Shown here one piece after another: positions 1-16,899 of a DNA stretch of 18,030 bases. A program made the position numbers and the translations under genes. Position 1 is the first letter of the stretch. Each line of letters starts with the position of its first letter. This DNA is from Pseudobdellovibrionaceae bacterium (GTDB taxonomy: Bacteria > Bdellovibrionota > Bdellovibrionia > Bdellovibrionales > Bdellovibrionaceae): assembly GCA_044359815.1 (NCBI GenBank), contig JBIKLL010000057.1, forward strand, positions 1-18,030. Reading direction: 5' to 3'. Under the pieces are notes generated by a model that saw nothing but the letters and a program-made list of their open reading frames with translations, ran no database searches and was not told where the DNA came from.

Positions 1-47
1 GCTTGCAGAATTGTCGCAATTTGAACATGGTGTTCACGCTTAAACAA
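1..47 (-). CDS. 5' fragment of a probable AbiEii/AbiGii-family nucleotidyltransferase toxin (runs off the window edge)
   Basis: Not in the ORF track. TTG at 47-45 overlaps the last codons and stop of the XRE gene, with GGGAG 7 nt upstream. It reads MFKREHHVQIATILQ(A), resembling the MF-x-R-x-HH-x-x-IA-x-x-L N-terminus I recall for AbiEii-like proteins encoded after this XRE type. Only 15 codons are visible. Confidence 0.6.
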   Translation of the reverse strand, partial: MFKREHHVQIATILQ

Positions 48-504
48 GCAAACGCTCCCGTCCAAAAGCAGCCAGTAGGTTATCTATAAACTCCTTTTCA
101 TCTAAATCCAGTTTTTTGATATCAACGTGACGCCAGTTTCTTTCGTATAATTCAAGCGCCTCTTGGGGACTTAACTCTTTGGTGCCCTTTAACTGCCAAG
201 CCAGCTTTTTCAATTGTCGATATTTTCCAATTCGAATTTTCCTTGGGAGCTTGGGGATTTGTTTTCTAGTTTTTAATTTGTCAGGATTTTGCAATTCAAT
301 TTCAAGCCCCAATGCCATGATCACACTCATGTATGCCCCCACAGAAACAGAGGCTTCCCCGCGCTCGATGCGATGAAGGGTGACTCTAGAAACTTCGGCG
401 GCCTCAGCTGTTGCAACACTGCTGATCTGTAAGTCTTTGCGTCGATCTCGAATAATCTGACCCAGTTTCCTCAGTGCCTTTTGATGGTTCAAATGTTGGC
501 TCAT
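40..504 (-). CDS. XRE-family helix-turn-helix regulator with C-terminal domain; probable antitoxin/autorepressor of an AbiE-like type IV TA pair
   Basis: LGQIIRDRRKDLQISSVATAEAAEVSRVTLHRIERGEASVSVGAYMSVIMALGL is a clear XRE/HipB-type HTH. The C-terminal 'LKKLAWQ...EALELYERNWRHVD' segment is typical of this subgroup. Confidence 0.85.
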   Translation of the reverse strand: MSQHLNHQKALRKLGQIIRDRRKDLQISSVATAEAAEVSRVTLHRIERGEASVSVGAYMSVIMALGLEIELQNPDKLKTRKQIPKLPRKIRIGKYRQLKKLAWQLKGTKELSPQEALELYERNWRHVDIKKLDLDEKEFIDNLLAAFGRERLLV

Positions 505-556
505 ATGTTACTTATTATATACAATATTGTTATTTTGTAAAGTATAAGAAACATAT
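503..556 (-). promoter_or_regulatory. sigma70 promoter overlapped by a 22-bp imperfect inverted repeat (putative autoregulatory operator)
   Basis: Minus strand reads TTTACA(541-536)-16 nt-TATAAT(519-514)-9 nt-ATG. Arms 503-524 and 535-556 match at 18/22 positions as reverse complements, with a 10-bp spacer. Confidence 0.75.
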
Positions 557-618
557 TTTTACATAGACCAAAGACCGTTTCCTCTTGATTTTCGCTTATA
601 TCAAATAAATGTTCCACC

Positions 619-643
619 AAAAGTGCTCACATCCTTGTGAACA
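619..643 (-). terminator. possible intrinsic terminator of the 657..1079 gene
   Basis: Minus strand TGTTCACA-agga-TGTGAGCA (8 bp with one G.U) followed by CTTTT, about 15 nt after the stop. Confidence 0.4.
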
Positions 644-656
644 AATTTGTTTCTTT

Positions 657-1079
657 TTATTCAAGCGGTGTGCAGTAGCCTTGAAAGTGTACGGTTTTAG
701 CTCCGACCTCGATCTTTAACATTGCGCGATCGTACCGAACCAAGTCGCTATTAAGCATCGGCACCATGTACACCAACGAAAATCCATTGCCAGTGTATTG
801 GGTGGACTTTGACCAAGGCTCAATCACCATCAAATGTTCGGCGCTATTGACGTCTCGATTTGCAACCGTTAACCATTCTGACAGATCTTTGTCGTATTTT
901 AACAAATTGATCGAATTCACCATCCCCCTGTCATTCATCTCAATCCGCAGATTTAACTGAAATCTGGCGTCTGCCATTTCAGTATCATCTTGTTCGCACA
1001 TCACAATGTCTTTCATGATGTAATCCGGTTGCGCTTGCGCCGACAGCGCAAGCAGTGTTGTTAGTAGTATCGTTTTCAT
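657..1079 (-). CDS. hypothetical secreted protein (140 aa)
   Basis: Strong RBS (AAGGAGGGG), Sec signal peptide MKTILLTTLLALSAQA and two Cys near the ends of the mature protein. No family recognised. Confidence 0.8.
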   Translation of the reverse strand: MKTILLTTLLALSAQAQPDYIMKDIVMCEQDDTEMADARFQLNLRIEMNDRGMVNSINLLKYDKDLSEWLTVANRDVNSAEHLMVIEPWSKSTQYTGNGFSLVYMVPMLNSDLVRYDRAMLKIEVGAKTVHFQGYCTPLE

Positions 1080-1336
1080 TTCCCCTCCTTAAATTAGGTG
1101 TTTGTGAGGAGGGAATATACTGATGGATTTTCGAGATACAATTTTGTAATTGGAAAGTTATTATGTGGTTTTTGAATACCGAAAAAATTGAAGCGCCACA
1201 CCCGGTGAGGAATTGTGGAGTTTCCTAATAATAAATCCCTCAATTTTAAAATAATGGTCCGAAAGACCTCCGACTAAAAAGTAATCCGGATTTTTCAAAA
1301 ATATTTTTTCAATTGTTTGCTTTGCAAGGCCGGCTG

Positions 1337-1364
1337 AAATAACAAAGGCGCATTGTTTTGCGCC
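1337..1364 (-). terminator. candidate terminator of an antisense (antitoxin) RNA, copy 1
   Basis: Minus strand GGCGCA-aaacaa-TGCGCC followed by TTTGTTATTT. It points opposite to the small ORF and lies upstream of its RBS. Confidence 0.5.
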
Positions 1365-1412
1365 CCCGTAAGATTTTTGGAGACCCCTTTCGGCAGAAAG
1401 GAGAATCTAAAA

Positions 1413-1523
1413 ATGAACAAACGAAACTATTTGTTTATTCGGAAAGTTTTATGGGTAACTAAAGACCTGTTAGTGATCCTTTTTCTTTTGTTAAAGGTCC
1501 TAACAATCCTAAGGCTCGTCTGA
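1413..1523 (+). CDS. small cationic-hydrophobic peptide (36 aa), candidate type I toxin; shorter allele
   Basis: AAGGAG at 1398-1403 and ATG at 1413. Sequence MNKRNYLFIRKVLWVTKDLLVILFLLLKVLTILRLV*. The frame continues past the TGA as PLILQRVQNW* to 1556, matching copy 2. Confidence 0.75.
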   Translation: MNKRNYLFIRKVLWVTKDLLVILFLLLKVLTILRLV

Positions 1524-1652
1524 CCGTTGATTCTCCAACGTGTTCAAAATTGGTGACTGATGCTCCAAGGCTGGACGTTGTACCGTCGAAAGGATGATCC
1601 ATGATGATTTGTACGGGGGCGCTTTTTGTGTGGATGATTTCGCGTTCACAAT

Positions 1653-1684
1653 CCTGCCTAAATTCAACCAAGAACTTAAGCAGG
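1653..1684 (-). terminator. 3' hairpin / possible terminator of the 1703..2398 gene
   Basis: Minus strand CCTGCTTAAGTTC-ttggtt-GAATTTAGGCAGG forms 13 bp with two G.U pairs (A.C mismatches on plus), 18 nt after the stop. The U-tract is weak. Confidence 0.5.
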
Positions 1685-1702
1685 GAATGTTTTTATTCAA
1701 TC

Positions 1703-2398
1703 TTATTTGGTGACGCGCTCAAAGATAGTTTGTTCTTTCAAGCATTCAGCATATTTGCTTTCTTCTACAAATTGAGCATAATCAAAAATTGTAACTAACC
1801 GATTACCCGATACTTTGAAACTAAATTCAAAGGATCTTTCTATGAATTGTTGATTGTTAGCATTAAATTCTTGTTCATAATCCGGGTATCCTGGACACTT
1901 AACTTCAGATTTAATCGGGATTGCTTTTATAAATCCTCCACTTACTTCGTATCTAGTCACACTGGAAATTTGGCATGAAAATGGTTTCTCATATTTTAGA
2001 AGATTTTTTAAAACACTAATACTATTGTTCATAGTTTCAATATCGGACTTCAATCTTTGTAATTCAGCTTCATCACATTTTTTGTAGGTGCCATCTTCAC
2101 ATTTTTTCAGTTCTGAAAGACTATTTATTAAACTTCTATTTGCAGTGACTAACCCACTTTCAATTTTGTTTTGAAAGTACCTAACTTTAAGTATCTCACT
2201 CGACCTCATTGAATCTAAGTCAAAACTCGCTTTTCGAAGTTCCAATACAATTTCATTTATTGAATCTGCAGCAAATACAACTTTGTTTTTTTCAATGCAT
2301 TTTTTTTCGACCATTTTCCAATTGCCTAAAAGTTCCTCGTTGTTAGCCAAAGCCAGGTTTGCAAACAACAAAACACTAATCGTAATAAACAATTTCAT
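1703..2398 (-). CDS. hypothetical secreted protein (231 aa from the likely ATG), possibly a lipocalin-like barrel with a coiled-coil insertion
   Basis: ATG at 2398 with GAGGAAGGA 7 nt upstream. Signal peptide MKLFITISVLLFANLALA, an early 'LLGNWKMV' GxW motif, six Cys and a central heptad-like helix. The DNA is visibly more AT-rich than the housekeeping genes. The fold is inferred. Confidence 0.8.
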   Translation of the reverse strand: MKLFITISVLLFANLALANNEELLGNWKMVEKKCIEKNKVVFAADSINEIVLELRKASFDLDSMRSSEILKVRYFQNKIESGLVTANRSLINSLSELKKCEDGTYKKCDEAELQRLKSDIETMNNSISVLKNLLKYEKPFSCQISSVTRYEVSGGFIKAIPIKSEVKCPGYPDYEQEFNANNQQFIERSFEFSFKVSGNRLVTIFDYAQFVEESKYAECLKEQTIFERVTK

Positions 2399-2446
2399 AA
2401 AATAATCCTTCCTCAAGGTTTTTTGAAATGAACCACAACCCTACTC

Positions 2447-2466
2447 AAAAAAAAAAAAAAAAAAAA
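2447..2466. repeat. A20/T20 homopolymer upstream of the 1703..2398 gene
   Basis: 20 consecutive A on plus, about 49 bp upstream of the ATG at 2398. Confidence 0.9.
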
Positions 2467-2469
2467 CCA

Positions 2470-2487
2470 CTGTCAGGAAAGTGACAG
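2470..2487. promoter_or_regulatory. CTGTCA-N6-TGACAG palindrome (CRP/FNR-family-like operator geometry, or a terminator stem before T20)
   Basis: ctgtca ggaaag tgacag, directly next to the homopolymer. Confidence 0.4.
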
Positions 2488-2608
2488 GTAATGGTTCTAC
2501 GATGATGTTTTTGACGACGGTGACACTTATGGGCAGCTGAAAAACAGATAGTTTAGATATTGGGTGATGCCTGCATTCAATTTTAGATCAAATCGAATTA
2601 AACTGCGC

Positions 2609-2628
2609 TCACTCCGGCGCCGGAGTGA
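2609..2628. repeat. perfect 20-bp GC-rich palindrome
   Basis: TCACTCCGGCGCCGGAGTGA is its own reverse complement. Confidence 0.9.
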
Positions 2629-2704
2629 AAATAAAAAAGCACCCCCGTAAAATCAGTCATGGATTGCCCCTTCGACGGTAAAACGTCCAGCCTTGGAGCA
2701 TCAG

Positions 2705-2848
2705 TCACCAATTTTGAACACGCTGGAGAATCAATGGTTGAACGAGCTTTAAGATTGTTAGGACCTTAATCAATAGAAAAAGAATCACCAACAGGTCTTT
2801 AGTTAACCATAAAACTTTCCGAATAAACAAATACTGTCGTTTATTCAT
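2705..2848 (-). CDS. small cationic-hydrophobic peptide (47 aa), candidate type I toxin; full-length allele
   Basis: Same RBS as copy 1. Sequence MNKRQYLFIRKVLWLTKDLLVILFLLIKVLTILKLVQPLILQRVQNW*. Of 13 codons differing from copy 1, 8 are synonymous, 4 conservative and 1 is CAA versus TGA. Confidence 0.8.
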   Translation of the reverse strand: MNKRQYLFIRKVLWLTKDLLVILFLLIKVLTILKLVQPLILQRVQNW

Positions 2849-2896
2849 TTTTAGATTCTCCTTTCTGCCGAAAGGGGTCTCCAAAAATCTTACGGG

Positions 2897-2923
2897 GGCG
2901 CAAACAATGCGCCTTTGTTATTT
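2897..2923 (+). terminator. candidate terminator of an antisense (antitoxin) RNA, copy 2
   Basis: GGCGCA-aacaa-TGCGCC-TTTGTTATTT. The stem and U-tract are identical to copy 1; the only change is a 1-nt indel in the loop. Confidence 0.5.
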
Positions 2924-3058
2924 CAGCAAGCCTTGCAAAGCAAACAATTGAAAAAATATTTTGGAAAAATCCGGATTACGTTTTGGTCGGAGGTCTTCCG
3001 GACCATTATTTTTATATAGTCCTCAATTTTTTGATTCCAATAAGCTTTTGTTTTGATT

Positions 3059-3232
3059 TAAATCCATCAATTTTAAAAATAATTTGAACTTCTTATTTTA
3101 AAAACGAGTTCGGACGTGAAGCTGCGCGGATGGTTTACATTTTTGATAATAAACTAATGCGCGCAGCTTTGCGCCCGCTGTTTGAGTTTTTAAAATAGAA
3201 AGTTCAAATTATTTTTTAAATTGAGGGATTTA
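3059..3232. repeat. long-hairpin repeat element, copy A (174 bp)
   Basis: Arms 3059-3105 and 3186-3232 are reverse complements at 43/47 positions. They enclose a GC-rich stem (CGGACGTGAAGCTGCGCG / CGCGCAGCTTTGCGCCCG). The core is shared with 8722-8809. Confidence 0.9.
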
Positions 3233-3245
3233 GTATTAGGAAACT

Positions 3246-3272
3246 CCACCACATCCTCATCGGATGTGGCGG
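3246..3272 (-). terminator. hairpin downstream of fadE (probable terminator / 3' stabiliser)
   Basis: Minus strand CCGCCACATCC-gatga-GGATGTGGTGG, 11 bp with one G.U, 20 nt after the fadE stop. The U-tract is poor. Confidence 0.55.
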
Positions 3273-3292
3273 TATATACGGAATTAAACAGA

Positions 3293-5728
3293 TTAGACGG
3301 TGTTGGCTTTAAATTCTGCTTCAGTGAAATCGTCGACCTGTATGGCGTCATATCTGACAGCCGCAGATTCTTTGATTAAAGCGTATTCTTCGGCAGTGAT
3401 CACGCCAGCATTTTTTGCGTCTTCCATGGCCTCTGGTCCCTTTTTCTTGGGGATTTTCTGAGCCTTGATAGCAGCGCGGATTTTGCGGTCAGCAGCCTCT
3501 GCTTTCAAAGTCACAACCATTGCATGATCCAATTTTGCCATCTGCTCTGTCGCAGTATTTTTAGGAAGGTATATTCCCTCAGTCAGCCTTTCACGATGTT
3601 CAAGGTCATTAAGAATGGAAACCACGACTCTGGATCCCAAACCATCACTGCCTTGTGAACCAATCGAATTGATTCGCGACCAACCACCCATCCAGCCTTT
3701 GAAAAACCAACGAAGCCCTGGGACCTTGATGTTGTCATAGATTCCGTCAAAAGCTTTTTGAATCTGCGACAAATTGTGTTTCAAAACAAAATCCACCATT
3801 GGCAAATCATCAGGTCTGCGTCCTTCAGCCTCGTACCTGCGTAAAACTGCACAACTGAAATACATATATGCCAAAATATCTGCAAAACGACCTGTGATTT
3901 TTTCTCGGAATTTCAATGAACCGCCCAAGGCACCCATAGCAATATCCGCTAAAATCGCAAAACTTGCTGAAGCCCACGATAGCCTTCGGTAATATTTTGC
4001 AGTCGGCCCAGACACTGGCGACGATGCCAAATATCCCCGAGTGAAACTCAACAACAAAGCTCTAAAGGAATTCCTGACGATATGACCGATATGACCCCAA
4101 AAAGCGGCATCGAAAGCTTTTAAATCATTTGCTTCAACTGCAGCCACTTCTTTATAAGCATAAGGATGTGCTCGCAAAGCGCCCTGACCAAATACGATTA
4201 AAGTTCTGGTTAAAATATTGGCTCCCTCAACTGTGATACCAATCGGAGTTCCAATATAAATTTGCGCTAGCAAATTTTTTGGTCCCAATGAAATTCCAGC
4301 TCCACCCAAAATATCCATAGCATCAGTAACACAGGCTCGACCCAGTTCCGTCGTATAGTATTTTACCATCGCTGTAATCACTGGTGGTTTGATACCTTTA
4401 TCTAAAGCTCCAAGCGTGTATCTGCGCATGCCTTCCAGACCATAAGTAAATGCAAAAATTCTGGCCAATGGCTCTTCAACGCCTTCAAACTTACCAATGC
4501 TGACACCAAATTGTTGTCTGATCACCGAATGTGCTGAACAAACTCGTGTCGCTAATTTACAAGCGCCCACTGTTTGCGCTGGCAATGAAATACCTCGGCC
4601 AGCAGCCAAACATTCCATCAACATCAGCCAACCCTTACCTGCGTAATCTGTTCCACCAACGATAGCATCGATGGGAACCACAACGTCTTTGCCTTGGGTC
4701 GGACAGTTATAAAACGGCACGCCCAATGGATCATGACGATTACCTAACACCACACCTTTGGTGCTGGATGGAATCAATGCACAAGTGATTCCTAAATCCT
4801 CACCCTTACCCAATAAATTTTTTGGATCGCGCAGTTTGAAAGCTAAACCAATAACCGTCGCCACAGCTGCCAGAGTGATCCATCGTTTGTTCCAGTTTAA
4901 TCTGATATACAGTTTTCCGTCTTCTCCCTTAAATATTTCACCACTTGACGTGATGGCTCCTGCATCCGATCCAGCCAATGGCTCGGTCAAACCGAAACAA
5001 GGGACCTCTATACCCTGAGCCAATCTGGGCAGGTAATGTCTTTTTTGTTCTTCGGTACCATAGTGAATTAATAATTCTGCAGGTCCCAATGAATTGGGCA
5101 CCATTATAGTAACACAGGCCGGGATGGATCGGCTGGCCAGTTTTTGCACGACTTCAGAGTGAGCCATAGCTGTAAATCCCAGTCCGCCGTATTCCTTAGG
5201 AATAATCATCCCGAAAAATTTTTCTTTTTTGATGTAATCCCAGATTTCTTTTTCAAGCTCTCGGGTCTTCCAGACCTTCCATGAATCAATCATTGCACAG
5301 AGTTTATCAACAGGTCCCGCCATAAAGGTTTTTTCTTCTTGGGTTAACTGGGGATAAGGTTCTGCAAGAATTTTTTTAAAATCAGGTTTTCCAGAAAATA
5401 AATCTTTTTCAACCCAAACCACTCCTGCATCCAAAGCGGTGCGCTCTGTTTCAGAGATTTTGGGCATTATACCCCTCATGACTTTCATCACCAGACTTGT
5501 GACCAACATCGATCTGACAGGCTTAATTAAAAACAGCGCAAAAAAAGCTGCGGCTGCAATCATCACATTGACAGAAGCTCCGAATCCATACAGCAGAGCT
5601 AAATCTGCTACCGCCCACAAAATTAATGGGCTTCCCGTGTATCCCAAAATCAAGGTGATTAAAACCGCGCCTAAACTGGCTGCCAAACAAAATTCATTTA
5701 AAAATCCGTAGTAGGGCAATCCTTCCAT
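3293..5728 (-). CDS. fadE: acyl-CoA dehydrogenase, long FadE type
   Basis: 811 aa with N-terminal TM segments, ISETERTALDAG, MVPNSLGPAELL, CFGLTEPLAGSDA, ITVEGANILTR and C-terminal IQVDDF. RBS GAGGAG. Confidence 0.95.
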   Translation of the reverse strand: MEGLPYYGFLNEFCLAASLGAVLITLILGYTGSPLILWAVADLALLYGFGASVNVMIAAAAFFALFLIKPVRSMLVTSLVMKVMRGIMPKISETERTALDAGVVWVEKDLFSGKPDFKKILAEPYPQLTQEEKTFMAGPVDKLCAMIDSWKVWKTRELEKEIWDYIKKEKFFGMIIPKEYGGLGFTAMAHSEVVQKLASRSIPACVTIMVPNSLGPAELLIHYGTEEQKRHYLPRLAQGIEVPCFGLTEPLAGSDAGAITSSGEIFKGEDGKLYIRLNWNKRWITLAAVATVIGLAFKLRDPKNLLGKGEDLGITCALIPSSTKGVVLGNRHDPLGVPFYNCPTQGKDVVVPIDAIVGGTDYAGKGWLMLMECLAAGRGISLPAQTVGACKLATRVCSAHSVIRQQFGVSIGKFEGVEEPLARIFAFTYGLEGMRRYTLGALDKGIKPPVITAMVKYYTTELGRACVTDAMDILGGAGISLGPKNLLAQIYIGTPIGITVEGANILTRTLIVFGQGALRAHPYAYKEVAAVEANDLKAFDAAFWGHIGHIVRNSFRALLLSFTRGYLASSPVSGPTAKYYRRLSWASASFAILADIAMGALGGSLKFREKITGRFADILAYMYFSCAVLRRYEAEGRRPDDLPMVDFVLKHNLSQIQKAFDGIYDNIKVPGLRWFFKGWMGGWSRINSIGSQGSDGLGSRVVVSILNDLEHRERLTEGIYLPKNTATEQMAKLDHAMVVTLKAEAADRKIRAAIKAQKIPKKKGPEAMEDAKNAGVITAEEYALIKESAAVRYDAIQVDDFTEAEFKANTV

Positions 5729-5763
5729 CGTGTACTCCTCATGCTGTGTTTTTCTTCTTGAAT

Positions 5764-5792
5764 AGTGTGCGACTAATGGATTTTAGGGTCAA
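5764..5792 (-). promoter_or_regulatory. candidate sigma70 promoter of fadE
   Basis: TTGACC-17 nt-CACACT on minus. Confidence 0.4.
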
Positions 5793-5793
5793 T

Positions 5794-6669
5794 CTAGTTC
5801 TGACATTTAGGACACCAATAGACAGAGCGGCCCGTTAAGATTTTGTGTTTTATTTTTGTGTTACACAGGACACAGTTTTGCCCTTTGCGATCGTAAACCT
5901 GATGGCGATTCTGAAAATCCCCCTTTATCCCATCCACCGAATGAAAATCATCAATACTTGACCCACCGGCCAGTATGGATTCAGCTAAAATTTCTCGAAT
6001 GTGCTTAAGCAACAGGCTGACATGACTCATCTTAAGTCTAGCGGCTGGCTTGAGTGGATTAATTTGTGCCCTAAACAGCGCTTCCGAAGCGTAGATGTTT
6101 CCCACTCCACACAACACACTTTGATCCAACAAAACATTGCGAATGGGGCTTTGCTTGTTGCTGATTTTTTGAAAAACTTCCGAATCGATGTTTTGCTGCA
6201 ACAGGGGATCAGGCCCCAAAATCTTATAAAATCTGTTTTGCCCTAAACTGTCGGCCAAACACACGTCCACGTATCCAAACCTGCGCGGATCATTATAAAT
6301 AAAATAGCGGTTAGCGATTTTTAAAAACAAATGATCGTGGTTTTTCAAATCTGGCTGCTGTTGCACACGCCAGTTGCCCGTCATTCCTAAATGCGACAGT
6401 ATCACATGATTTTCGAATTCAAAAATCAGATATTTACCCTTGCGATTAATGGTCAGAAGTTTTTCACCAATCAATTTTTTGAGACTCTTGCCGGGAATTC
6501 TGAATCTTAAATCAGGTCTAAATAATTTCACTTCTTGCAGGAAAGATTGCGACGTATTTTTTAAATCAATATTTGCCTGATGATTATTCTGCAAATCCGA
6601 ATCTGATTTTAAACTAAGATTTTTTAAAAGTCCCTGTCGGACGATTTCGACTTCTGCTAATTCTGGCAT
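5794..6669 (-). CDS. mutM: formamidopyrimidine-DNA glycosylase / AP lyase (Fpg)
   Basis: N-terminal MPELAEVE, RKGKYL, HLGMTG, DPRRFG, H2TH motif GVGNIYASEALF and a C-terminal CxxC...CxxC zinc finger. Confidence 0.96.
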   Translation of the reverse strand: MPELAEVEIVRQGLLKNLSLKSDSDLQNNHQANIDLKNTSQSFLQEVKLFRPDLRFRIPGKSLKKLIGEKLLTINRKGKYLIFEFENHVILSHLGMTGNWRVQQQPDLKNHDHLFLKIANRYFIYNDPRRFGYVDVCLADSLGQNRFYKILGPDPLLQQNIDSEVFQKISNKQSPIRNVLLDQSVLCGVGNIYASEALFRAQINPLKPAARLKMSHVSLLLKHIREILAESILAGGSSIDDFHSVDGIKGDFQNRHQVYDRKGQNCVLCNTKIKHKILTGRSVYWCPKCQN

Positions 6670-6777
6670 TGGGCTTATGTAAACTAGGGTTTTAGAAATG
6701 ACAAATTAAAGTCTTCCAAAAAAGGCGCTTTTCTTTGTTCTGAATTAATCCTATTAATTCCCTGATTCCAATTGAGG

Positions 6778-7821
6778 CTAAAATGTCTTGGCGTCGATGA
6801 CAAAGCGGTATTTAACTTGGCTTTTTAGAACCCTCTCGTAGGCTTCGTTGATTTTATCAGCCCCGATCAACTCGATGTCTGAGAAAACTTTTTTCTTGGC
6901 GCAAAAATCCAACATCTCCTGAGTTTCCTTGATCCCACCAATTAATGAACCGGTTAAACGCTTACGCCCGCCGATCAATGAAAATGCCGCAATTTTTGCT
7001 GGCTCTGGCGGCACACCCACAAGCACCATGGTTCCATCGATTTTTAGCGCTGCTAAATAAGGCGCAAAATCATGAACCGCCGATACTGTGTCAATTATCA
7101 AATCAAAATAAAACTGCAATTTTGAAAAATTATTTAAATCTTTTGAATACACAAAATGTTTTGCACCTAATTTTTTAGCATCGCTTTGTTTGTCCATCGA
7201 AGTGCTGAACACCGTGACTTCAGCCCCCATGGCCTTTGCCAATTTTACGGCCATGTGCCCAAGCCCACCCAATCCAACCACGCCGACCTTGGAACCCTTT
7301 TTGGTATTGTAACGTTTTAGTGGCGAATACGTTGTAATGCCCGCGCACAGCAACGGAGCAATACGCTCAAGAGGCTGGCCCTTTTTGATTTTCAGAGTGT
7401 ACTTTTCCTTGACCGTGATGTGAGTGGAATACCCCCCAAAGGTAGGAGTCTTATTATCCATTTCGGTGCTGTTGTAGGTGAACACACATTTTTTCTGGCA
7501 AAACTGTTCTTCGTTGGATTTGCAGCTTTCGCATTTGCCACAAGAATCCACGAAACACCCAACGCCGGCCGAATCACCAATTTTAAATTTTTTGACTTTT
7601 TTCCCAACCCTAATGACCTGTCCCACAATTTCGTGACCAGGCACGCAGGGATAAGCAGTCGGTCCCCATTCGCTGCGTGCAGTGTGGATATCCGAATGAC
7701 AGATTCCACAGTGGGATATCTGAATCACCACATCGTCAGGATTGGGTTCTCGCCTTTCGATTGTAATTGGCTGCAAAGGACTGGTTGCGGATTTATTGGC
7801 GAAGGCTTTTGTTTGTATCAT
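6778..7821 (-). CDS. Zn-dependent NAD(P)-dependent alcohol dehydrogenase (cinnamyl alcohol dehydrogenase / YahK-like)
   Basis: CGICHSD, PGHEIVG, structural-Zn CxxCxxC...C, APLLCAGITTYSPL, GLGGLGHM and YRFVID. Confidence 0.95.
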   Translation of the reverse strand: MIQTKAFANKSATSPLQPITIERREPNPDDVVIQISHCGICHSDIHTARSEWGPTAYPCVPGHEIVGQVIRVGKKVKKFKIGDSAGVGCFVDSCGKCESCKSNEEQFCQKKCVFTYNSTEMDNKTPTFGGYSTHITVKEKYTLKIKKGQPLERIAPLLCAGITTYSPLKRYNTKKGSKVGVVGLGGLGHMAVKLAKAMGAEVTVFSTSMDKQSDAKKLGAKHFVYSKDLNNFSKLQFYFDLIIDTVSAVHDFAPYLAALKIDGTMVLVGVPPEPAKIAAFSLIGGRKRLTGSLIGGIKETQEMLDFCAKKKVFSDIELIGADKINEAYERVLKSQVKYRFVIDAKTF

Positions 7822-7827
7822 GCGCGC

Positions 7828-7899
7828 AGACTAATTTGATTTTTTTTAAAACTCAAGCCCCAGCACTTTGTTGACATTGAGTCAGAACTGACAAATAGT
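7828..7899. promoter_or_regulatory. divergent sigma70 promoters, both close to their start codons
   Basis: Minus: TTGAGT(7856-7851)-17-TAGTCT(7833-7828)-6 nt-ATG. Plus: TTGACA(7871-7876)-17-AATAGT(7894-7899)-10 nt-ATG. Neither gene has an SD. Confidence 0.5.
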
Positions 7900-7909
7900 T
7901 TTCAGTCTG

Positions 7910-8608
7910 ATGTCACAACGTAAAGAAAATGGCTTTATAAATATCATCGTCAATGTCGTGATTCCGGTTTTTGTGCTGAACAAACTGTCAGAAAAACTGG
8001 GACCTGGAAACGCCCTGATTCTGGCGCTGATGTTCCCTTTGGGGTACGGGATTTATGACTGGATTTACCGCAAAAAAATCAACGCCATTTCAGCCCTGGG
8101 CTTGCTGAATGTGACCATCACTGGCGGATTGGCCCTGCTGGGTTTGGGTGGAATTTGGTTTTCACTCAAAGAGGCCGCCTTCCCGTTGTTGATTGGGATT
8201 TTTGTTTGGTTTTCAGCCAATTCTGAAAATCCTTTTATAAAAATGCTTTTAATCAATCCACAGGTCATGCATGTTGATAAAATTGAATCAAAGCTGAAAG
8301 AGCTCAATAACCAATCACTGTTTATGCAACATTTGTCGACATCCACCCGACTACTGGCCCTATCGTTTTTTATCTCTGCTGTTTTTAATTTCACCTTGGC
8401 GCAGTTTATCTTCCTGCCCTTGCCTGAGGGACTGCCTCAAACAGAAAAATCATTGCTGCTTAATCAACAGATAGCGCAAATGACTTCATGGTCATTTTTG
8501 GTGATTATGGTGCCTTCGATGCTGTTTTTGATTTTTATTTTTTATCATTTGCTCAATGGCATTAAAAAACTCACTCAACTGACTATGGAAGACATCGTCA
8601 GAAACTAA
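7910..8608 (+). CDS. integral membrane protein, VC0807-family-like
   Basis: About 6 TM helices. 'NIIVNVVIPVFVLNKLS', 'ALMFPLGYG', 'KEAAFPLLIG' and 'SFFISAVFNFTLA' resemble that family as I recall it. Confidence 0.75.
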   Translation: MSQRKENGFINIIVNVVIPVFVLNKLSEKLGPGNALILALMFPLGYGIYDWIYRKKINAISALGLLNVTITGGLALLGLGGIWFSLKEAAFPLLIGIFVWFSANSENPFIKMLLINPQVMHVDKIESKLKELNNQSLFMQHLSTSTRLLALSFFISAVFNFTLAQFIFLPLPEGLPQTEKSLLLNQQIAQMTSWSFLVIMVPSMLFLIFIFYHLLNGIKKLTQLTMEDIVRN

Positions 8609-8612
8609 CTTA

Positions 8613-8913
8613 AAAAGAGACCGTACAACTTTTTCTGTCTACACCGCAGAATGAAATCAAAAACTTATAAAGCCAAAACTGCAATTTCAAAAAAAATAAT
8701 ATTACTTTGCAGTCTTAAAAGCGAGTTCGGACGTGAAGCTGCGCGGATGCCTTAAATGCTTTGATTGCACGAATGCGCGCATCTTTGCGCCCGCTGTTTG
8801 AGTTTTTAAGACTGCAAAGTAATATTATTTTTAGAAATTGCAGTTTTGGCTTTTATATTCTTTAGACCGTTTTATCCTGCGGTGTAGACAGAAAAAGTCG
8901 TACGGTCTCTTTT
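8613..8913. repeat. long-hairpin repeat element, copy B (301 bp), filling a convergent intergenic gap
   Basis: Outer arms 8613-8656 and 8870-8913 match at 41/44; inner arms ~8669-8722 and 8802-8853 are near perfect. Core blocks match copy A at 28/28 and 37/38. Confidence 0.92.
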
Positions 8914-9614
8914 CAGAAATCATCATCTATGATCGGTGGCGGTGGGATTTCATCAAAATCTCCCATTGGCGGCGGTGGCGGTGGCGGAATGTCGGGTTCA
9001 AAAAACTCTGGCGCAGGTGGTGGCGGTGGTGCTGATTCAGAATAACTGGGCGGTACATAGGATCCACCGGATGATCCTGTTGGCCCCCCAGATCCTGTGG
9101 TGCCCAGCTTAAATTTACTCATCCAATTAGTTTTGCCATAAAGCGACCGTTTTTCTGGATCTGCCCTGTCTTTATCCTGATCCAATCCGTATTCGGTTTC
9201 AGGGCTTAGCTTGACAGCTTCGGCTTTCTCCCGCGCACGCTTGCGCTGTTCTGAATACTGCCGTTGTCTGGCCTGTTGAGCTTCCCATTTTTTGTATCTG
9301 ACTTCGCGATCTGCTTTATACTCTGGCCCCGTATCGTCTACGGACTTTTTTTGCTTTTTGCGATCAATCTGGTGCTGAATGATGGCTTTTTTTTGTTGCT
9401 CATCCCATTTTGCTTTTGATTTGCGAACATCAGCGGCCCCTGATTCGCGAGCCTTATCAAAATTTTTATTAGCCTTTTGCTTTTCTTGAAAGCCCTTAAG
9501 TCGTTGAGATTCAGAAAACAAGGGCTCAAAAGTTTCTGCAGCCAATGTCACCGAACAATTGCTAATGATGAAAATCAAAAAAAAGGCTTTCACAGGCTTC
9601 AGAATAAGAGTCAT
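8913..9614 (-). CDS. hypothetical secreted protein: charged coiled coil, Gly/Ser linker, poly-Pro/acidic tail
   Basis: Hydrophobic N-terminus ending ...SVTLA, a K/R/E/Q-rich helix and tail PPPPPPAPEFFEPDIPPPPPPPMGDFDEIPPPPIIDDDF. Confidence 0.8.
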   Translation of the reverse strand: MTLILKPVKAFFLIFIISNCSVTLAAETFEPLFSESQRLKGFQEKQKANKNFDKARESGAADVRKSKAKWDEQQKKAIIQHQIDRKKQKKSVDDTGPEYKADREVRYKKWEAQQARQRQYSEQRKRAREKAEAVKLSPETEYGLDQDKDRADPEKRSLYGKTNWMSKFKLGTTGSGGPTGSSGGSYVPPSYSESAPPPPPAPEFFEPDIPPPPPPPMGDFDEIPPPPIIDDDF

Positions 9615-9678
9615 TGCCGCACCCTACAAGAGCTTTCCTACTGGACCTTTCATAGATTCTGTATGATAGTCGCCGCCT

Positions 9679-10680
9679 ATGACTGAAGTCCTGATATTTT
9701 TAGCCAAGTTTGCCATTACTTTTGTTTTTTTAGCGGCTCTGATTTTGCTGATCGCAATGATTGTTTACAAAAGCTCTCATAAATCAGAAATGGATTTGGA
9801 ATTACTGAATGATAAATATGATGATTTCAAAACGGCTTTGCATTCTTTCACGATGCAAAAGTCAGAATTTAAAAAGGAAAAAAAGAAACTTAAAAAAGAC
9901 CGCAAAAAAGTCGAAGATTTTAAAAACACAGTTTTTGTCATTGATTTTAAAGGCGACATCAAAGCTTCTCAAACAGAGAATTTACGAGAAGAGGTCACGG
10001 CCGTTTTGCAAGTCGCCACCCCTACTGATGAAGTTGTGATCAAGATTGAAAGCCCTGGAGGTGTCGTACATGGGTATGGACATGCAGCTTCGCAACTTCA
10101 GCGCATCCGAGAAATCAATATCCCATTAACGGTTTGTGTTGATGAAGTTGCTGCCAGTGGCGGCTACTTGATGGCTTGCGTTGGCAATAAAATTTTGGCT
10201 TCGCCCTTTGCCATTGTAGGATCCATTGGGGTTTTGGCTCAGGTGCCCAATCTAAATCGATTGCTTAAAAAATATGATGTGGATTTCAAGGAATACACGG
10301 CGGGCGAATACAAACGAACTGTGACTATGCTGGGCGAAATCACCCCGCAGAAAGAGCAAAAATTTATTGAAAGACTGCAGGACACCCACGTTTTGTTTAA
10401 GGATTTTGTCCTTAAGAACCGCCCCCAGATGGATTTAGCCAAAGTTGCCACGGGGGATTTTTGGTTTGGCGAAGAGGCTATAAAACTGGGACTGATTGAT
10501 CAAATCAAAACCAGTGATGATTATTTGATGAGCAAAGCAGCTGAAAAGTCTCGCATCTTAAAAATCAAAATCGCTCACAAAAAACCATTAACAGACAAGT
10601 TATCAGACCTTGTGGGCAAGGCTTTGAAGCAAGCTCTGGAAGCGACTTTGCATCCCTTGAACAATCTAAAATTTCCTTAA
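9679..10680 (+). CDS. sohB: protease SohB (peptidase S49)
   Basis: N-terminal TM, FKGDIKAS, ESPGGVVHGYG, VAASGGYLMAC, GSIGV and TAGEYKRT. Confidence 0.95.
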   Translation: MTEVLIFLAKFAITFVFLAALILLIAMIVYKSSHKSEMDLELLNDKYDDFKTALHSFTMQKSEFKKEKKKLKKDRKKVEDFKNTVFVIDFKGDIKASQTENLREEVTAVLQVATPTDEVVIKIESPGGVVHGYGHAASQLQRIREINIPLTVCVDEVAASGGYLMACVGNKILASPFAIVGSIGVLAQVPNLNRLLKKYDVDFKEYTAGEYKRTVTMLGEITPQKEQKFIERLQDTHVLFKDFVLKNRPQMDLAKVATGDFWFGEEAIKLGLIDQIKTSDDYLMSKAAEKSRILKIKIAHKKPLTDKLSDLVGKALKQALEATLHPLNNLKFP

Positions 10681-10761
10681 AGAATTGTTTTCTTTGCATT
10701 TTATTTTTGTACAGGTTAGACCTTTCTTGTGTTTTGCAAACAATGGAGGAGGGGCCAAGCG

Positions 10762-11742
10762 TTGCAAGAAACAATTCTCAAGGTTGAAAACCTCGAAACA
10801 ACATTTTTTTCTAAACTCGGCGCATTCAAGGCTGTTAATAATCTATCCTACGAAATTAAAAAAGGTGAAACCCTGGGAATTGTGGGGGAATCCGGCTGCG
10901 GAAAATCCGTCACTTCTTTTTCGTTAATGCGTTTGATTGAAAAGCCTGGTCGCATCACTCAAGGCAAAGCCATCCTGAAGGGTCGTGATTTGTTGTCACT
11001 GCCGATGGAAACCATGCAACAGGTTCGTGGTGGCGATATGGCTATGATTTTTCAAGAGCCCATGACAGCTTTGAATCCAGTATTGACCATTGGTGATCAA
11101 ATAGACGAACAATTTATCCGTCACAAAAAGGTTTCTAAGGCCGAGGCCAAAGACCGCTCCATTGAGATGTTAAAACTGGTGGGAATTCCGTCACCCGAAA
11201 GTCGCTACACTAATTATCCTCATCAATTGTCGGGCGGCATGCGACAGCGAGCTATGATTGCCATGGCACTTTCCTGTGATCCCAGCTTGCTGATCGCCGA
11301 TGAACCTACAACAGCTTTAGATGTGACCATACAAGCACAAATTTTAGAACTGATTCAGAATCTGCAAGAAAAATTTAAAATGACAGTGCAGTTTATCACT
11401 CACGATTTGGGCGTGATATCCGAGGTCAGTGACCGCGTGATGGTTATGTATGGCGGGCAAATGTGTGAAAGCGCAAAAGCCCAAGATATTTTCAAACATC
11501 CTCTGCATCCTTACACTCATGCATTGATTTCGTCGCGACCCAAGTTTGGGCAAAGGGTCGCAAGGCTGAGCACTATTGAAGGATCAGTGCCTGCACCTCA
11601 CGAATTGCCAAAAGGTTGTCCGTTTTTTAACAGATGCCCCAAGGCGCAAAATCACTGTCAGCATGAACGACCACCAATAACCAATTTATCAAAAGACCCT
11701 AGCAGTCCCCATCTGGTGGCCTGCTTTCACCCAATGGATTAA
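10762..11742 (+). CDS. oppD: oligopeptide/dipeptide ABC transporter ATP-binding subunit (OppD/DppD type)
   Basis: Walker [31 protein letters not shown] and a C-terminal Cys motif. Likely start is TTG at 10762 after GGAGGAGGGG. Confidence 0.93.
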
Positions 11743-11743
11743 G

Positions 11744-12733
11744 ATGGAAACAATTTTAGAAGTTAAAAATCTTAAAAAATACTTCCCGATCAAAAAGGGT
11801 TTACTGCTGAAAGAAGTCGGGCAAGTCAAAGCCGTCGATGATGTGAGCTTTTTCGTTAAAAAAGGCGAAACCCTGGGCTTAGTCGGCGAATCCGGTTGCG
11901 GCAAATCCACTTTGGGCAGAACCTTGATCAGATTATATGAACCCACAGGTGGTCAGGTTTCATTTAAGGGCAATGATTTTTTAAAAATCAGTGGAACAGA
12001 ACTGCGCAATCAGCGAAAAGATTTGCAGATGATTTTTCAAGATCCCTTTGCATCCCTGGATCCACGAATGACTGTGGGCAGGATTTTGGCTCAGCCTTTT
12101 GATATTCATACCAAGATGAATGCCGAAGAAATCGAAGATCGTATCAAAGAACTGCTGGCAATCGTTGGTTTAAAACCGTCTCATATAAATCGCTATCCGC
12201 ACGAATTTTCTGGCGGGCAAAGACAACGCATCTGTATTGCCAGGGCCATTGCCCTGAATCCAAGCCTGATCATCGCTGATGAACCTGTCAGCGCTTTGGA
12301 TGTTTCAATCCAGGCTCAGATTTTAAATTTGCTGAAAGACCTTCAGCAAAAACTGGATTTAACTTATGTTTTTATTTCTCATGATCTGTCTGTCATCGAG
12401 CATCTGTGTGATCGGATTGCTGTGATGTATTTGGGAAAAATAGTCGAAATCGCTTCACGCGACGAACTGTTTGCAGCCCCTAAACATCCTTACACTCAAG
12501 CTCTGCTGGCAGCTATCCCTAGGGTGGGTGAAGGCAAAAAGAAAATAACAAAATCACTGAGCGGGGAAGTTCCCAGTCCTATCAATCCCCCCTCAGGATG
12601 TGCCTTTCACCCCAGATGTTCTAAGAAAATTGAGCCTTGCAATAAATTGCAACCTCAATTGTCAGGGAAACAAGATCATAAAACAGCTTGCTGGCTTTAT
12701 GACGAAAAAAACCCTGAGCGAATGGTAACGTAA
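11744..12733 (+). CDS. oppF: oligopeptide/dipeptide ABC transporter ATP-binding subunit (OppF/DppF type)
   Basis: [35 protein letters not shown] and GCAFHPRC. Confidence 0.93.
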
Positions 12734-12776
12734 TAAAACTCAAGACTGAGTCTTGAAAAGTAAAAGGAGTTTATCA

Positions 12777-14471
12777 ATGAAAACAGTTTTAAGATTTTTA
12801 ATACCGATGGTTTTACTGTCGCTGACGGCCCAAGCCGCTCCGACAAAAATGACCAATGAAGAATTCAAAATTGGAATCAGCCAAGAGTTTGAAACTTTAA
12901 ACCCTATGATTATGCAAATGGTTGCATCCAATTATTTGTACAGCATGGTTGGCAGATCGTTTGTAACCATGGATACAAATGGGAAATGGGTCCCGCAATT
13001 GGCAAAAACCATCCCCAGTTTGGAAAATGGATTAGCCAAAATCACAACGGTGGCTGGCAAAAAAACCCTGACTGCAGTTTGGGAAATCCAAGACAAAGCT
13101 CAATGGGGCGACGGAACTCCGCTAACCTGTGCGGATTTTCAGTTTTCCCGTGAAGTGGCTGAAAACAATAACGTCAGCCTAGGCTCAAAAGAAAACTACA
13201 CCATGGTTGCGAAAATTGATTTTGACCCTGCACTTCCTAAAAAATGCACATTAACCTACGACAAACCCAGATGGGATTTTTATCAAATGCCACAGTTTTT
13301 CCCTCTGCCTAGGCACTTGGAAGAGCCCGTTTACAAAAAATATGGAAACGAAAAAGAAGGCTACGAAAAAAATTCGAACTACAACAAAAACCCAACGCTT
13401 GAGGGTTTGTACAACGGCCCTTACAAAGTCGCAGAAGTTAAATTGGGAAGCCACATTGCATTTGCACCCAATCCTAAATTTTGGGGCGAACAACCTAAAA
13501 TCAAAAAAGTTATTGTAAAAATAATTCCAAACACAGCAACATTGGAAGCCAACTTAAGATCAGGCACTATTGATACTGTGGCTTCATTAGGATTTACTTT
13601 TGACCAAGCGATTTCGTTTGAGAAAAAAGTCAAATCAGAAGGCCTTCCCTACAATGTGTTATTTAAACCAAGCCTGACCTATGAACACATTGATTTAAAC
13701 TTGGACAATCCAATTTTAAAAGATGTGAAAGTCCGCAAAGCCTTAGTTTACGCCTTGAACCGACAAGAATTAGTTCAAGCACTCTTTAATGGCAAACAAC
13801 CTGCGGCCATTCACAATTTAGCTACCATTGATCCTTGGTACACAGCTGACCCTAAAAAAATTGTGATTTACAATTACGACAAGAAAAAATCGGGTCAATT
13901 GCTGGATGAAGCTGGCTGGAAACTGGGACCTGATGGTTACAGATACAAAGAAGGTCAAAAACTCTCATTACAATTAATAACTACTGCTGGAAACAAAGTC
14001 CGCGAAACAGTGCAGACCTTTTTACAGAGCCAATGGAAGTCCGTTGGTGTTGAAATTGCTCTGAAGACAGAACCAGCCCGAGTGTTTTTTGGCGAAACTA
14101 TGAACAAAAGAAAATATTCTGCCATGGGCATGTATGCTTGGGTTTCTTCACCTGAGAGCAATCAAAAACCTCAGTTTCATTCAAGCAACATACCGTCTGA
14201 AAAAAATGGTTTTTCAGGTCAAAACCAACCGGGCTGGAGAAACCCCAAGGTGGATGAATTAACAGAAAAAATTGAAGTTGAGTTTGATCCCAAAAAACGA
14301 GCTGAATTAGCGCAAAAGATTTTGTGGCATTACACAGACGATGTGCCCGTGATTCCATTGTATTACAGATCTGACATTGCTGTGGTCCCAACGGCTCTGA
14401 AAAACTTTGCTTTGCCTGGACATCAATTTTCTGAAACCAATTCTATTGAAGGGTGGACGATTCAACAATGA
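12777..14471 (+). CDS. oppA: peptide ABC transporter substrate-binding protein (family 5)
   Basis: ATG at 12777 after AAGGAG, signal peptide ending AQA, WGDGTPLT, NGPYKV, VRKAL...LNRQ and LLDEAGW. Confidence 0.92.
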   Translation: MKTVLRFLIPMVLLSLTAQAAPTKMTNEEFKIGISQEFETLNPMIMQMVASNYLYSMVGRSFVTMDTNGKWVPQLAKTIPSLENGLAKITTVAGKKTLTAVWEIQDKAQWGDGTPLTCADFQFSREVAENNNVSLGSKENYTMVAKIDFDPALPKKCTLTYDKPRWDFYQMPQFFPLPRHLEEPVYKKYGNEKEGYEKNSNYNKNPTLEGLYNGPYKVAEVKLGSHIAFAPNPKFWGEQPKIKKVIVKIIPNTATLEANLRSGTIDTVASLGFTFDQAISFEKKVKSEGLPYNVLFKPSLTYEHIDLNLDNPILKDVKVRKALVYALNRQELVQALFNGKQPAAIHNLATIDPWYTADPKKIVIYNYDKKKSGQLLDEAGWKLGPDGYRYKEGQKLSLQLITTAGNKVRETVQTFLQSQWKSVGVEIALKTEPARVFFGETMNKRKYSAMGMYAWVSSPESNQKPQFHSSNIPSEKNGFSGQNQPGWRNPKVDELTEKIEVEFDPKKRAELAQKILWHYTDDVPVIPLYYRSDIAVVPTALKNFALPGHQFSETNSIEGWTIQQ

Positions 14472-15439
14472 GTACCTACATCACTCGACGATTGATTCAA
14501 ACTTTAGTGGTCATAGTAGTCTTGAGCTATTTTTTGTTCTACATTATGACCCTTATGCCAGGGGATCCTGTTGAACTGTTGATCCAATCTAATCCCAAGA
14601 TCACATCTGCCGATATCGCCAGATTGAAATCCTTGTATGGATTGGATCAACCCGTGTACATGAGGTACCTTAACTGGGCACAGACAATTGTTTCGGGTGA
14701 TTTTGGATATTCTAGGACCTATCGTATACCAGTGGGTGAACTGATGGGACCCAAACTGGTCAACACTTTCTTTTTGTCCTTGGGATCTTTGACCCTAGCT
14801 CTATTGATCAGCATTCCCTTAGGGATTTTAACTGCCTTGCGACCCAACACCAAAATTGATTATTTGGTAAACTTTTTTTCCTTTGCGGGAATTTCAGTGC
14901 CCTCATTTTGGTTAGGAATCGTTTTAATCATTATTTTTTCTGTGTGGTTTCAAATTTTACCGGCCGGAGGGACATACACAATTGGGATAGACAATGCCCC
15001 TCTGTTGGACCAAATCCTGGATCGCATTAAATATTTAATTTTACCAACAATGGCGCTTTCATATTTGCAGATTGGCAGATTTGTCAGATTCACCCGCTCT
15101 GCTATGGCAGAGGCCATGAGAAATGATTTTATCAGAACAGCTCGCGCAAAAGGCTTATCTGAAAAACAGGTGATTTGGAGACATGGCTTTAGAAATGCTT
15201 TGTTGCCGTTAATTACAATATTAGCACTTAGCTTTTCATCTTTGTTTTCAGGAGCTCTGATTACAGAAACAGTGTTTGCTTACCAAGGCGTGGGCAAATT
15301 GGTTTATGACTCGATAATTGCCAATGATTTTAATGTGGCGATGGTGAGCTTTATAATTTCGGTAACTATGGTCTTAACAATGAATTTAGTGGCGGATATT
15401 TTATATGCATTTGCAGACCCAAGAATCACCTACTCGTGA
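14468..15439 (+). CDS. oppB: peptide ABC transporter permease (OppB/DppB type)
   Basis: ATGA overlap with the oppA stop; MPGDP, GLDQP, GDFGYS and the EAA-loop motif DFIRTARAKGL. Confidence 0.93.
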   Translation: MSTYITRRLIQTLVVIVVLSYFLFYIMTLMPGDPVELLIQSNPKITSADIARLKSLYGLDQPVYMRYLNWAQTIVSGDFGYSRTYRIPVGELMGPKLVNTFFLSLGSLTLALLISIPLGILTALRPNTKIDYLVNFFSFAGISVPSFWLGIVLIIIFSVWFQILPAGGTYTIGIDNAPLLDQILDRIKYLILPTMALSYLQIGRFVRFTRSAMAEAMRNDFIRTARAKGLSEKQVIWRHGFRNALLPLITILALSFSSLFSGALITETVFAYQGVGKLVYDSIIANDFNVAMVSFIISVTMVLTMNLVADILYAFADPRITYS

Positions 15440-15449
15440 GGTGAATAAA

Positions 15450-16700: not shown

Positions 16701-16809
16701 TTTACCTTTTTTTGAATTGATTATTTACAGACACAAAATCTAGTCAGATTTTTTCAAATTGCTTTATGAGTTTTTAATCACTTACAGCCCATTTATTTCA
16801 AAACAATAC

Positions 16810-16825: not shown

Positions 16826-16899
16826 ACATACCTTTTTGAGAGTCTAGTTTTATTTTTTGCAAAGCCTTGGCTTTAAGCCTTAGGCAGAAAGGAGAGATT

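Follow-up and report, generated by a model that had tools for sequence, protein, structure and literature searches.

The stretch of DNA analysed here (the window: 18,030 nt, positions 1 to 18,030 of the forward strand of contig JBIKLL010000057.1, assembly GCA_044359815.1, from a Pseudobdellovibrionaceae bacterium) carries near its left end two related units of approximately 385 nt, A and B, which face each other across a spacer of 1 kb. Each contains a small open reading frame (ORF) behind a Shine-Dalgarno (SD) sequence, and this ORF is a real, conserved, duplicated small-peptide gene under purifying selection. We consider each unit to be probably (with a probability of roughly 60%) a chromosomal module of type I toxin-antitoxin (TA) kind, representing a new family. 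This reading was found to be the best supported because of the type of peptide, the selection on its coding sequence, the covarying architecture of its mRNA, its multi-copy, decaying distribution and the evidence for a terminator on the antisense strand.

A conserved and duplicated small-peptide gene

The two units are convergent and form an inverted repeat with two pairs of arms, 1357-1627/2634-2904 (271 nt, 90% complementary) and 1243-1358/2902-3017 (116 nt, 93%); aligned to each other, they are 92% identical over 373 nt. The units, with their reading frames and ribosome-binding sites, are as follows.

1243..1630, plus strand: repeat unit A, comprising the entire module (conserved upstream region, structured mRNA, ORF, 3' untranslated region (UTR) and T run), delimited by the inverted-repeat arms and the alignment to unit B
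2634..3017, minus strand: repeat unit B, convergent with unit A, delimited by the inverted-repeat arms and the alignment to unit A
1413..1523, plus strand: peptide ORF A with its stop, 36 aa (MNKRNYLFIRKVLWVTKDLLVILFLLLKVLTILRLV) (translation; family profile E = 3.9e-19)
2705..2848, minus strand: peptide ORF B, 47 aa, its first 36 codons homologous to ORF A (translation, alignment)
1400..1403, plus strand: SD sequence GGAG of copy A (read from the sequence; paired in minimum-energy folds)
2858-2861, minus strand: SD sequence GGAG of copy B (read from the sequence; paired in minimum-energy folds)

The first-pass annotation had proposed an SD-led ORF in both inverted copies (36 and 47 aa), encoding peptides with a basic N-terminus followed by a stretch rich in Leu, Ile and Val; both the coordinates and the shape of the peptides were borne out, and the GGAG sits 9 nt 5' of the ATG in either copy. 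Upstream of the ATG the copies are identical over 56 nt, out to a 1-nt indel in a run of T, so that the approximately 60 nt of identity claimed earlier stand in substance. Over the 36 shared codons, ORFs A and B differ at 10 codons, six of them synonymous and four conservative (N5Q, V15L, L27I and R34K from A to B), without indels (pS 0.255, pN 0.067); the earlier count was right about the conservative changes and the lack of indels, and too high for the differing (13) and the synonymous codons (8). At the family stop position copy A, like most relatives, has a stop codon (TGA), and copy B has CAA; ORF B consequently gains 11 further codons from sequence that in copy A belongs to the conserved 3' UTR.

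A profile was built from four peptides and then from 31, and genomes were searched with it in six frames. The resulting consensus reads MRKxxYLRIRRVLxITKxxLxIILLILxIxxKxKxL, and the AlphaFold2 model (31-sequence alignment) is a single helix spanning residues 3-35 with a mean pLDDT of 91.8. With 36 aa and one modelled helix, the product is of the small (<60-70 aa), hydrophobic and helical type that characterises the type I class. In 32 units from 30 loci the ORF begins with ATG, GTG or TTG behind an SD sequence, and in 21 of these it has exactly 36 codons; one further family match, devoid of a start codon, is outside the 32 units. Variability at codon positions 1, 2 and 3 was 0.378, 0.198 and 0.465, i.e. 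lowest at the second and highest at the third. The median dN/dS in frame was 0.34 (167 usable of 210 pairs), as expected under purifying selection, against 0.63 and 2.40 in the other two frames, which contain 5.0 and 2.3 stops per sequence. Even relatives that are only 32-45% identical to copy A at the protein level keep the frame, the start, the SD sequence and the length of 36 codons. The two checks that had been suggested on homologues, conservation of the frame and dN/dS, thus both came out in favour of a coding sequence.

At E <= 1e-4 per genome, family matches were found in 74 of the 384 genomes of the order to which the window belongs, namely in 60 of the 181 other genomes from its own family and in 13 of 202 from the other twelve families; members with the same layout occur in four of these other families. 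In a phylum-wide sample of 401 genomes, 22 had matches at E <= 1e-6, every one inside the order and none outside it. Among the genomes covered, the family is confined to the order that holds Bdellovibrio. A scan based on eight closer sequences, with a single peptide pattern, gave ten loci, all from Bdellovibrio or Bdellovibrionaceae records; since only one pattern was used, it sets no bound on the range of the family. There are up to six copies per genome at E <= 1e-4 and up to seven at the looser E <= 1. One locus (L075; G127:C2:71500-73300, minus strand) has three units in tandem, with a period of 356 nt and approximately 50 nt between units; the ORF of the third unit continues into other sequence. 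Further pairs or arrays were seen in G080, G182, G208, G318 and G023. Some matches have in-frame stops and others comprise the N-terminal part only, as would be seen in decayed members. Multiplication, partly in tandem, and patchy occurrence, both tendencies of the type I class, are therefore found here as well.

In the genome of the window itself, the module is present at five places (A, B, C72, C68 and C49), two of them decayed. The C72 copy has suffered an internal deletion that shortened its ORF to 30 aa, C68 consists of two module fragments, and the C49 copy is diverged and intact, with an ORF of 37 aa. An upstream region of approximately 100 nt is conserved among A, B, C72 and C68. Family members are found next to core genes, e.g. 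ftsQ/murB, secA, enolase, leuS and ligA, and the units stand alone: among the 44 flanking ORFs scanned there was no recurrent neighbour and no mobile-element gene.

The earlier statement that the peptide belongs to no named family was upheld. When four peptides were searched against Pfam, NCBIfam and PADLOC, no match to Hok/Gef, Ldr, TisB, Ibs, Fst or any other toxin family was obtained at E <= 10. Public protein sets contain 73 relatives, all unnamed or 'hypothetical'; B. bacteriovorus W has an annotated homologue, BDW_02725. Of the cluster representatives, 0 of 91 cluster representatives of relatives matched a Pfam family over the cut-off. The best ESM Atlas matches are unnamed clusters at 0.84-0.86, all below the 0.9 line and to be taken as a lead only. 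On either strand of window positions 1-4000 and of seven family loci, Rfam gave no type I antitoxin RNA (Sok, Sib, Rdl, IstR, OhsC, RatA and others), the only matches being sub-threshold chance ones to SmY, a CRISPR repeat, a Thr leader and a miRNA. A search of full-text literature returned no type I TA system for Bdellovibrio or its relatives, and the main text of the T1TAdb paper mentions neither the genus Bdellovibrio nor the Deltaproteobacteria. Fozo et al. 2010 give 0 type I loci of known families for B. bacteriovorus HD100 in one of their supplementary tables; supplement file 7 of the same work lists a single feature-based candidate of HD100, Bd3114 (54 aa). Eight small RNAs are reported from HD100 in attack phase (PMC3627812, Table 2), one of them 275 nt long, which is the size expected here; no link to the present family is drawn from this. 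The family is thus described in none of the libraries and literature searched.

Predicted architecture of the transcript

The following elements were recognised in the sense transcripts of the two window copies.

1360..1374, plus strand: 5' strand of a long-distance 5'-3' clamp (GCGCCCCCGTAAGAT) (folds, repeat analysis, family helix)
2887-2901, minus strand: 5' clamp strand of copy B (folds, repeat analysis)
1386..1401, plus strand: local 5'-UTR hairpin CCTTTC-ggca-GAAAGG, the upstream anti-SD, occluding the first two G of the SD sequence (sequence)
1413..1438, plus strand: start-codon hairpin ATGAACAAA / TTTGTTTAT (folds; helix in the family alignment)
1529..1536, plus strand: downstream anti-SD GATTCTCC at a distance of 6 nt from the stop codon, with its partner GGAGAATC at 1400-1407 (folds)
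1607..1627, plus strand: 3' clamp strand (ATTTGTACGGGGGCGC, 1607-1622) and then five T (1623-1627), the likely mRNA 3' end (sequence, folds, family alignment)
2639-2653, minus strand: 3' clamp strand of copy B, with the T run at 2633-2638 (sequence, folds, family alignment)

Unit A folds with -98 kcal/mol (z = -4.9) and unit B with -95.5 kcal/mol (z = -4.8), and 0 of 200 shuffled sequences folded as well. From 28 aligned units, RNAalifold recovered both the clamp, as a helix of 13 bp joining the 5' region to the 3' end, and a start-codon hairpin of 6 bp (alignment columns 94-99/113-118; 97% paired). Changes on both sides of a pair were seen at 10 of the 13 clamp pairs and at three of the six hairpin pairs, that is at 13 of 19 altogether. 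For these 19 pairs, 91.3% of alignment cells are paired compared with 32-47% when partners are slid, and the covariation score is 0.459 as against 0.07-0.15 for the slid controls, a value that 0 of 500 shuffles reached. In 27 of 29 units the sense strand forms the more stable clamp duplex (-33.2 vs -24.9 kcal/mol), and the start hairpin is sense-favoured in 23 of 32. In the C49 copy the two clamp strands are wholly different in sequence and are still complementary to each other (gcttacgcaagatcc / ggatcttgcgtaagc).

In 29 of 32 minimum-energy folds the SD sequence is base-paired, either with a segment located 9-29 nt past the stop codon or with the anti-SD upstream in the 5' UTR; the equivalent of the upstream anti-SD helix is 74.6% paired in the family alignment. 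When three truncated or clamp-less units were left out, the SD sequence of the nascent transcript was paired in 27 of 29 units and the 5'-3' interaction was present in the full-length fold of 23. The post-stop anti-SD lies 6-30 nt after the stop codon. Its duplex with the SD sequence has -13.2 kcal/mol in the window copies and is matched or beaten by 1.3% (A) and 2.4% (B) of control windows; 16 of the 32 units, both window copies included, have this duplex in the top 5% of control windows. In C49 the two elements have changed in step (aggagacc / ggtctcc). It should be noted that a motif just after the stop, CTCCAACGTGTTC (window 1534-1546 and the same place in the family loci), is kept across the whole order; its CTCC is the anti-SD, and the conserved AACGTGTTC part has no assigned partner.

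Taken together, the clamp, the start hairpin and the pairing of the SD sequence suggest that the primary transcript should be translationally silent. A non-translatable primary transcript with an occluded SD sequence, as found here by prediction and covariation, is 'a major hallmark of type I TA loci', and in some families the occlusion involves a long-distance 5'-3' interaction (both in the sections of PMC6733600 consulted). A structured mRNA, which the first-pass annotation had named as a feature of known type I toxins, was recovered here by prediction, with covariation in its favour.

The antisense strand and a possible sense promoter

At the 5' edge of every unit there is a long hairpin that holds the 5' clamp strand inside its loop, and its 5' arm covaries with its 3' arm. 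This and a second terminator-like site have the following positions in the window.

1334..1367, minus strand: candidate antisense terminator, GGGGGCGCA-aaacaa-TGCGCCTTT followed by GTTATTTCAG (fold, strand bias)
2894-2926, plus strand: its equivalent in copy B (fold, strand bias)
1246..1268, minus strand: second terminator-like site, GGTCTTTCGGACC + ATTATTTT, inside the conserved upstream region of approximately 100 nt (consensus scan)
2992-3014, plus strand: its equivalent in copy B (consensus scan)

Read as antisense RNA, the region 1334-1367 folds with -16.2 kcal/mol, compared with -11.4 kcal/mol in sense, and 3 vs 0 G-U pairs are formed. The same bias was seen in 30 of 32 units, with means of -19.4 (antisense) and -16.2 (sense) kcal/mol and with 32 G-U pairs on the antisense strand vs seven on the sense strand; the 10 nt following the hairpin contain on average 4.2 T in antisense and 2.6 in sense. 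A sliding profile of strand bias was antisense-favoured at this hairpin (-92 to -24; 15-19 of 21 units) and weakly so from +84 to +152 (13-14 of 21), while the ORF was sense-favoured throughout, perhaps partly owing to base composition. The better fold and the U-rich tail on this strand point to an antisense RNA that crosses the 5' UTR and terminates at the hairpin. The simplest reading of these sequence features would be that both strands are transcribed and that the antisense RNA, ending at the 5'-edge hairpin, is a candidate antitoxin. The antitoxin half of the type I proposal thereby gained indirect support from an antisense-favoured, terminator-like hairpin, while an antisense promoter was not established.

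Antisense sigma-70-like sites cluster at +63 to +66. This clustering is explained by the Ile and Leu codons, and the sites were rejected as an antitoxin promoter, as they do not exceed the expectation from 300 synonymous resamplings of the ORFs. Another candidate, a divergent small RNA upstream of the window copies (1245-1300 minus, 2960-3015 plus), was likewise discarded, its duplex with the mRNA being no better than with shuffled sequences (fractions 0.36 and 0.47).

On the sense strand, 24 of 32 units have GG-N9-TGCA at a fixed place between -82 and -88 relative to the ATG, compared with a background of 0.04 per scan window. The sigma-54 consensus consists of GG at -24 and (T)GC at -12 at a fixed spacing, and that of GG-N9-TGCA agrees with it. 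The motif is found among family loci L036-L064, and neither copies A and B of the window nor C72 and C49 have it. In the 25-45 nt upstream of the conserved TAAAAATGCA box, where a sense sigma-70 -35 element was looked for, there is no information content. The genome of the window encodes rpoN and 11 strong activator genes. With a -24/-12-type motif in most members, transcription may require an activator. If GG-N9-TGCA is the promoter, transcription would start inside the 5'-edge hairpin and the clamp strand would lie at the very 5' end of the mRNA; a sense RNA starting there would lack the 5' arm of the hairpin, which would be left to the antisense RNA alone.

Interpretation, related systems and neighbouring sequence

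The unit encodes a peptide of approximately 36 aa that is strongly basic at its N-terminus and contains a single long, hydrophobic helix. In silico, the very 5' region of its mRNA of approximately 270-290 nt pairs with the 3' end, the start codon is held in a hairpin, and the SD sequence is paired with the upstream anti-SD in the nascent RNA and with the post-stop anti-SD in the full-length one. Under the type I reading, with hok/Sok and aapA/IsoA taken as models, a nuclease that removes the 3' clamp strand may free the 5' region and the ribosome site, after which the peptide would insert in the inner membrane and dissipate the membrane potential. The antitoxin would be a cis-antisense RNA: overlapping the 5' UTR and terminating at the unit's 5'-edge hairpin, whose loop is complementary to the 5' clamp strand, it would bind the freed 5' region and thus block translation or trigger cleavage.

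Several observations weigh against this interpretation. Toxicity and membrane targeting of the peptide are suggested by its shape only. Antisense sigma-70-like sites (+58 to +70) occur in 15 of 32 units, where 18.0 +/- 2.0 would be expected, and the divergent RNA candidate has no excess complementarity to the mRNA over shuffled sequence. The strand-bias test can be affected by base composition, and, as the units are related, counts made across them lack independence. No more than half of the units (16/32) have a clear post-stop anti-SD, and the clamp is absent from the minimum-energy fold in 6 of 29. The window copies themselves have no -24/-12 motif, no promoter was identified for A and B, and with copy B devoid of the family stop codon at least one of them departs from the norm.

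Nothing in the coding and structural evidence, taken by itself, calls for toxicity, and a conserved, non-toxic small protein of the inner membrane (e.g. a modulator of a transporter, a sensor or an envelope process), restrained by the structure of its mRNA and without a dedicated antitoxin, would account for it and for the failure to find an antisense promoter above expectation. One locus at about 12 kb, held at the same place in at least five complete genomes of one genus, is also housekeeping-like in its behaviour. Such a role nevertheless seems unlikely to us, given a distribution as patchy as 60 of 181 genomes of the window's own family, up to six copies per genome (E <= 1e-4) with tandem arrays and decayed copies, and no fixed neighbour gene; double occlusion of the SD sequence and an antisense-biased terminator hairpin are traits of selfish or toxic modules rather than of typical accessory subunits. 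Rather more doubtful is a toxin-type mRNA that is controlled by its own folding, by 3' processing and by a mostly activator-dependent promoter, with no antisense antitoxin and with a 5'-edge hairpin that serves the sense strand or the DNA. This would be in line with the want of an antisense promoter above expectation and with the fixed place of GG-N9-TGCA in 24 of 32 units, and with rpoN and its activators at hand transcription could be tightly off by default. It is at odds, however, with hairpin arms that covary, with the more stable antisense fold and its U-richer tail in a hairpin favouring that strand in 30 of 32 units, and, if the -24/-12 motif is the promoter, with a start inside the hairpin, which would make the antisense RNA the strand that needs the 5' arm.

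A further and still less probable possibility is that the product permeabilises membranes under developmental gating, as part of the predatory life cycle, and that the family is not an addiction or stress module. Were that improbable case true, the gene would be transcribed only upon the firing of a sigma-54 activator and the mRNA would stay silent until a nuclease trims the clamp; at equally long odds, the predator might then use the peptide to time a membrane event in its own cells, e.g. growth arrest when it passes between attack and growth phases, or lysis and departure from the prey. Finally, we regard it as very improbable that the units are structured non-coding RNAs or repeat elements resembling miniature inverted-repeat transposable elements (MITEs) with an incidental ORF. 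The unit is indeed repeated and inverted, its flanks are conserved as well as the ORF or better, and a separate palindromic repeat adjoins copy B. Yet the frame, start, SD sequence and 36-codon length persist down to 32-45% protein identity to copy A, dN/dS is 0.34 in a frame whose alternatives are full of stops, and no transposase or other mobile gene is adjacent.

Among known systems, the type I reading finds its closest parallels in aapA/IsoA of Helicobacter and Campylobacter, which, in sections of PMC6733600 and PMC8594479, are described with helical membrane peptides of approximately 30 aa and several chromosomal copies, as seen here. According to the same part of PMC6733600, a 5'-3' interaction and a downstream anti-SD placed on the SD sequence keep the full-length aapA mRNA inert, and additional local hairpins sequester the SD sequence in the nascent RNA; the same layout is predicted here in both respects. 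The antisense RNA of aapA/IsoA overlaps the 5' part of the mRNA (excerpts of PMC6733600 and PMC8594479), whereas in the present family it is only a candidate. Unlike aapA/IsoA, moreover, the present family comes from a different phylum, with no peptide or RNA similarity found in Pfam, NCBIfam or Rfam; its 5' clamp strand is in the loop of the candidate antisense terminator hairpin, and most members have a -24/-12-type motif and no obvious sigma-70 promoter.

The likeness to hok/Sok (in part after sections of PMC6733600, where its folding is given with reference to Gultyaev 1997 and Nagel 1999) concerns a 5'-end hairpin that competes with the final fold, a structured and silent primary transcript activated by 3' trimming, which here would be a matter of analogy, and decayed chromosomal copies. 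In contrast to hok/Sok, there is no Hok/Gef match in Pfam at E <= 10 and no mok-like leader ORF, the peptide of 36 aa is charged at its N-terminus, and the modules are chromosomal and intergenic, not plasmid-borne. Peptides of TisB/IstR-1, Ldr, ShoB, Zor and DinQ resemble the present ones in being single helices of approximately 30-36 aa with charges within or beside the hydrophobic stretch. TisB is also the nearest Pfam-bearing cluster in the ESM Atlas, at a cosine of 0.77 that is 'often chance' and a lead only, and the TisB profile itself did not match. The antitoxins of TisB-type families are small RNAs that lie 5' of the mRNA, divergent from it and without overlap (as stated in part of PMC8594479), whereas here tandem units are only approximately 50 nt apart and the divergent RNA candidate has no excess complementarity.

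If true, the type I reading would enlarge this class by a well-defined family, carried by obligate predators whose genomes are small. The comparative set is unusually clear, with dozens of diverged copies that show compensatory changes in the clamp, two alternative anti-SD elements and a strand-specific terminator hairpin. With it, the folding-pathway model for the control of toxin mRNAs can be tested in a new lineage, and control by sigma-54, if real, would be an unusual gating for such a gene.

The spacer between the units contains one gene (1703-2398, minus strand) for a protein of 231 aa with a signal-peptide-like N-terminus, an orphan framed by the repeat. It matches no Pfam family and has no homologue in the 181 other genomes of the same family; with no link to the module elsewhere, it was rejected as a 'cargo' of the latter. 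Just upstream of its start lies a terminator-like hairpin (minus strand, 2487-2470), followed by an unusually long homopolymer of approximately 23 uninterrupted T (A on the plus strand, ~2443-2465). Beside copy B, a palindromic element of approximately 175 nt (3059-3232) forms an insertion relative to copy A, with arms of 47 nt (3059-3105/3186-3232) and an inner inverted repeat; it recurs at 8692-8840, and of its 22 matches in the same genome three are inside the query region and one adjoins a C68 module fragment. It looks like a MITE- or REP-like repeat. Just to the left of unit A there are an unassigned ORF of 140 aa (657-1079, minus strand) and a gene for an XRE-type helix-turn-helix protein (HTH_31/HTH_3; 40-504, minus strand).

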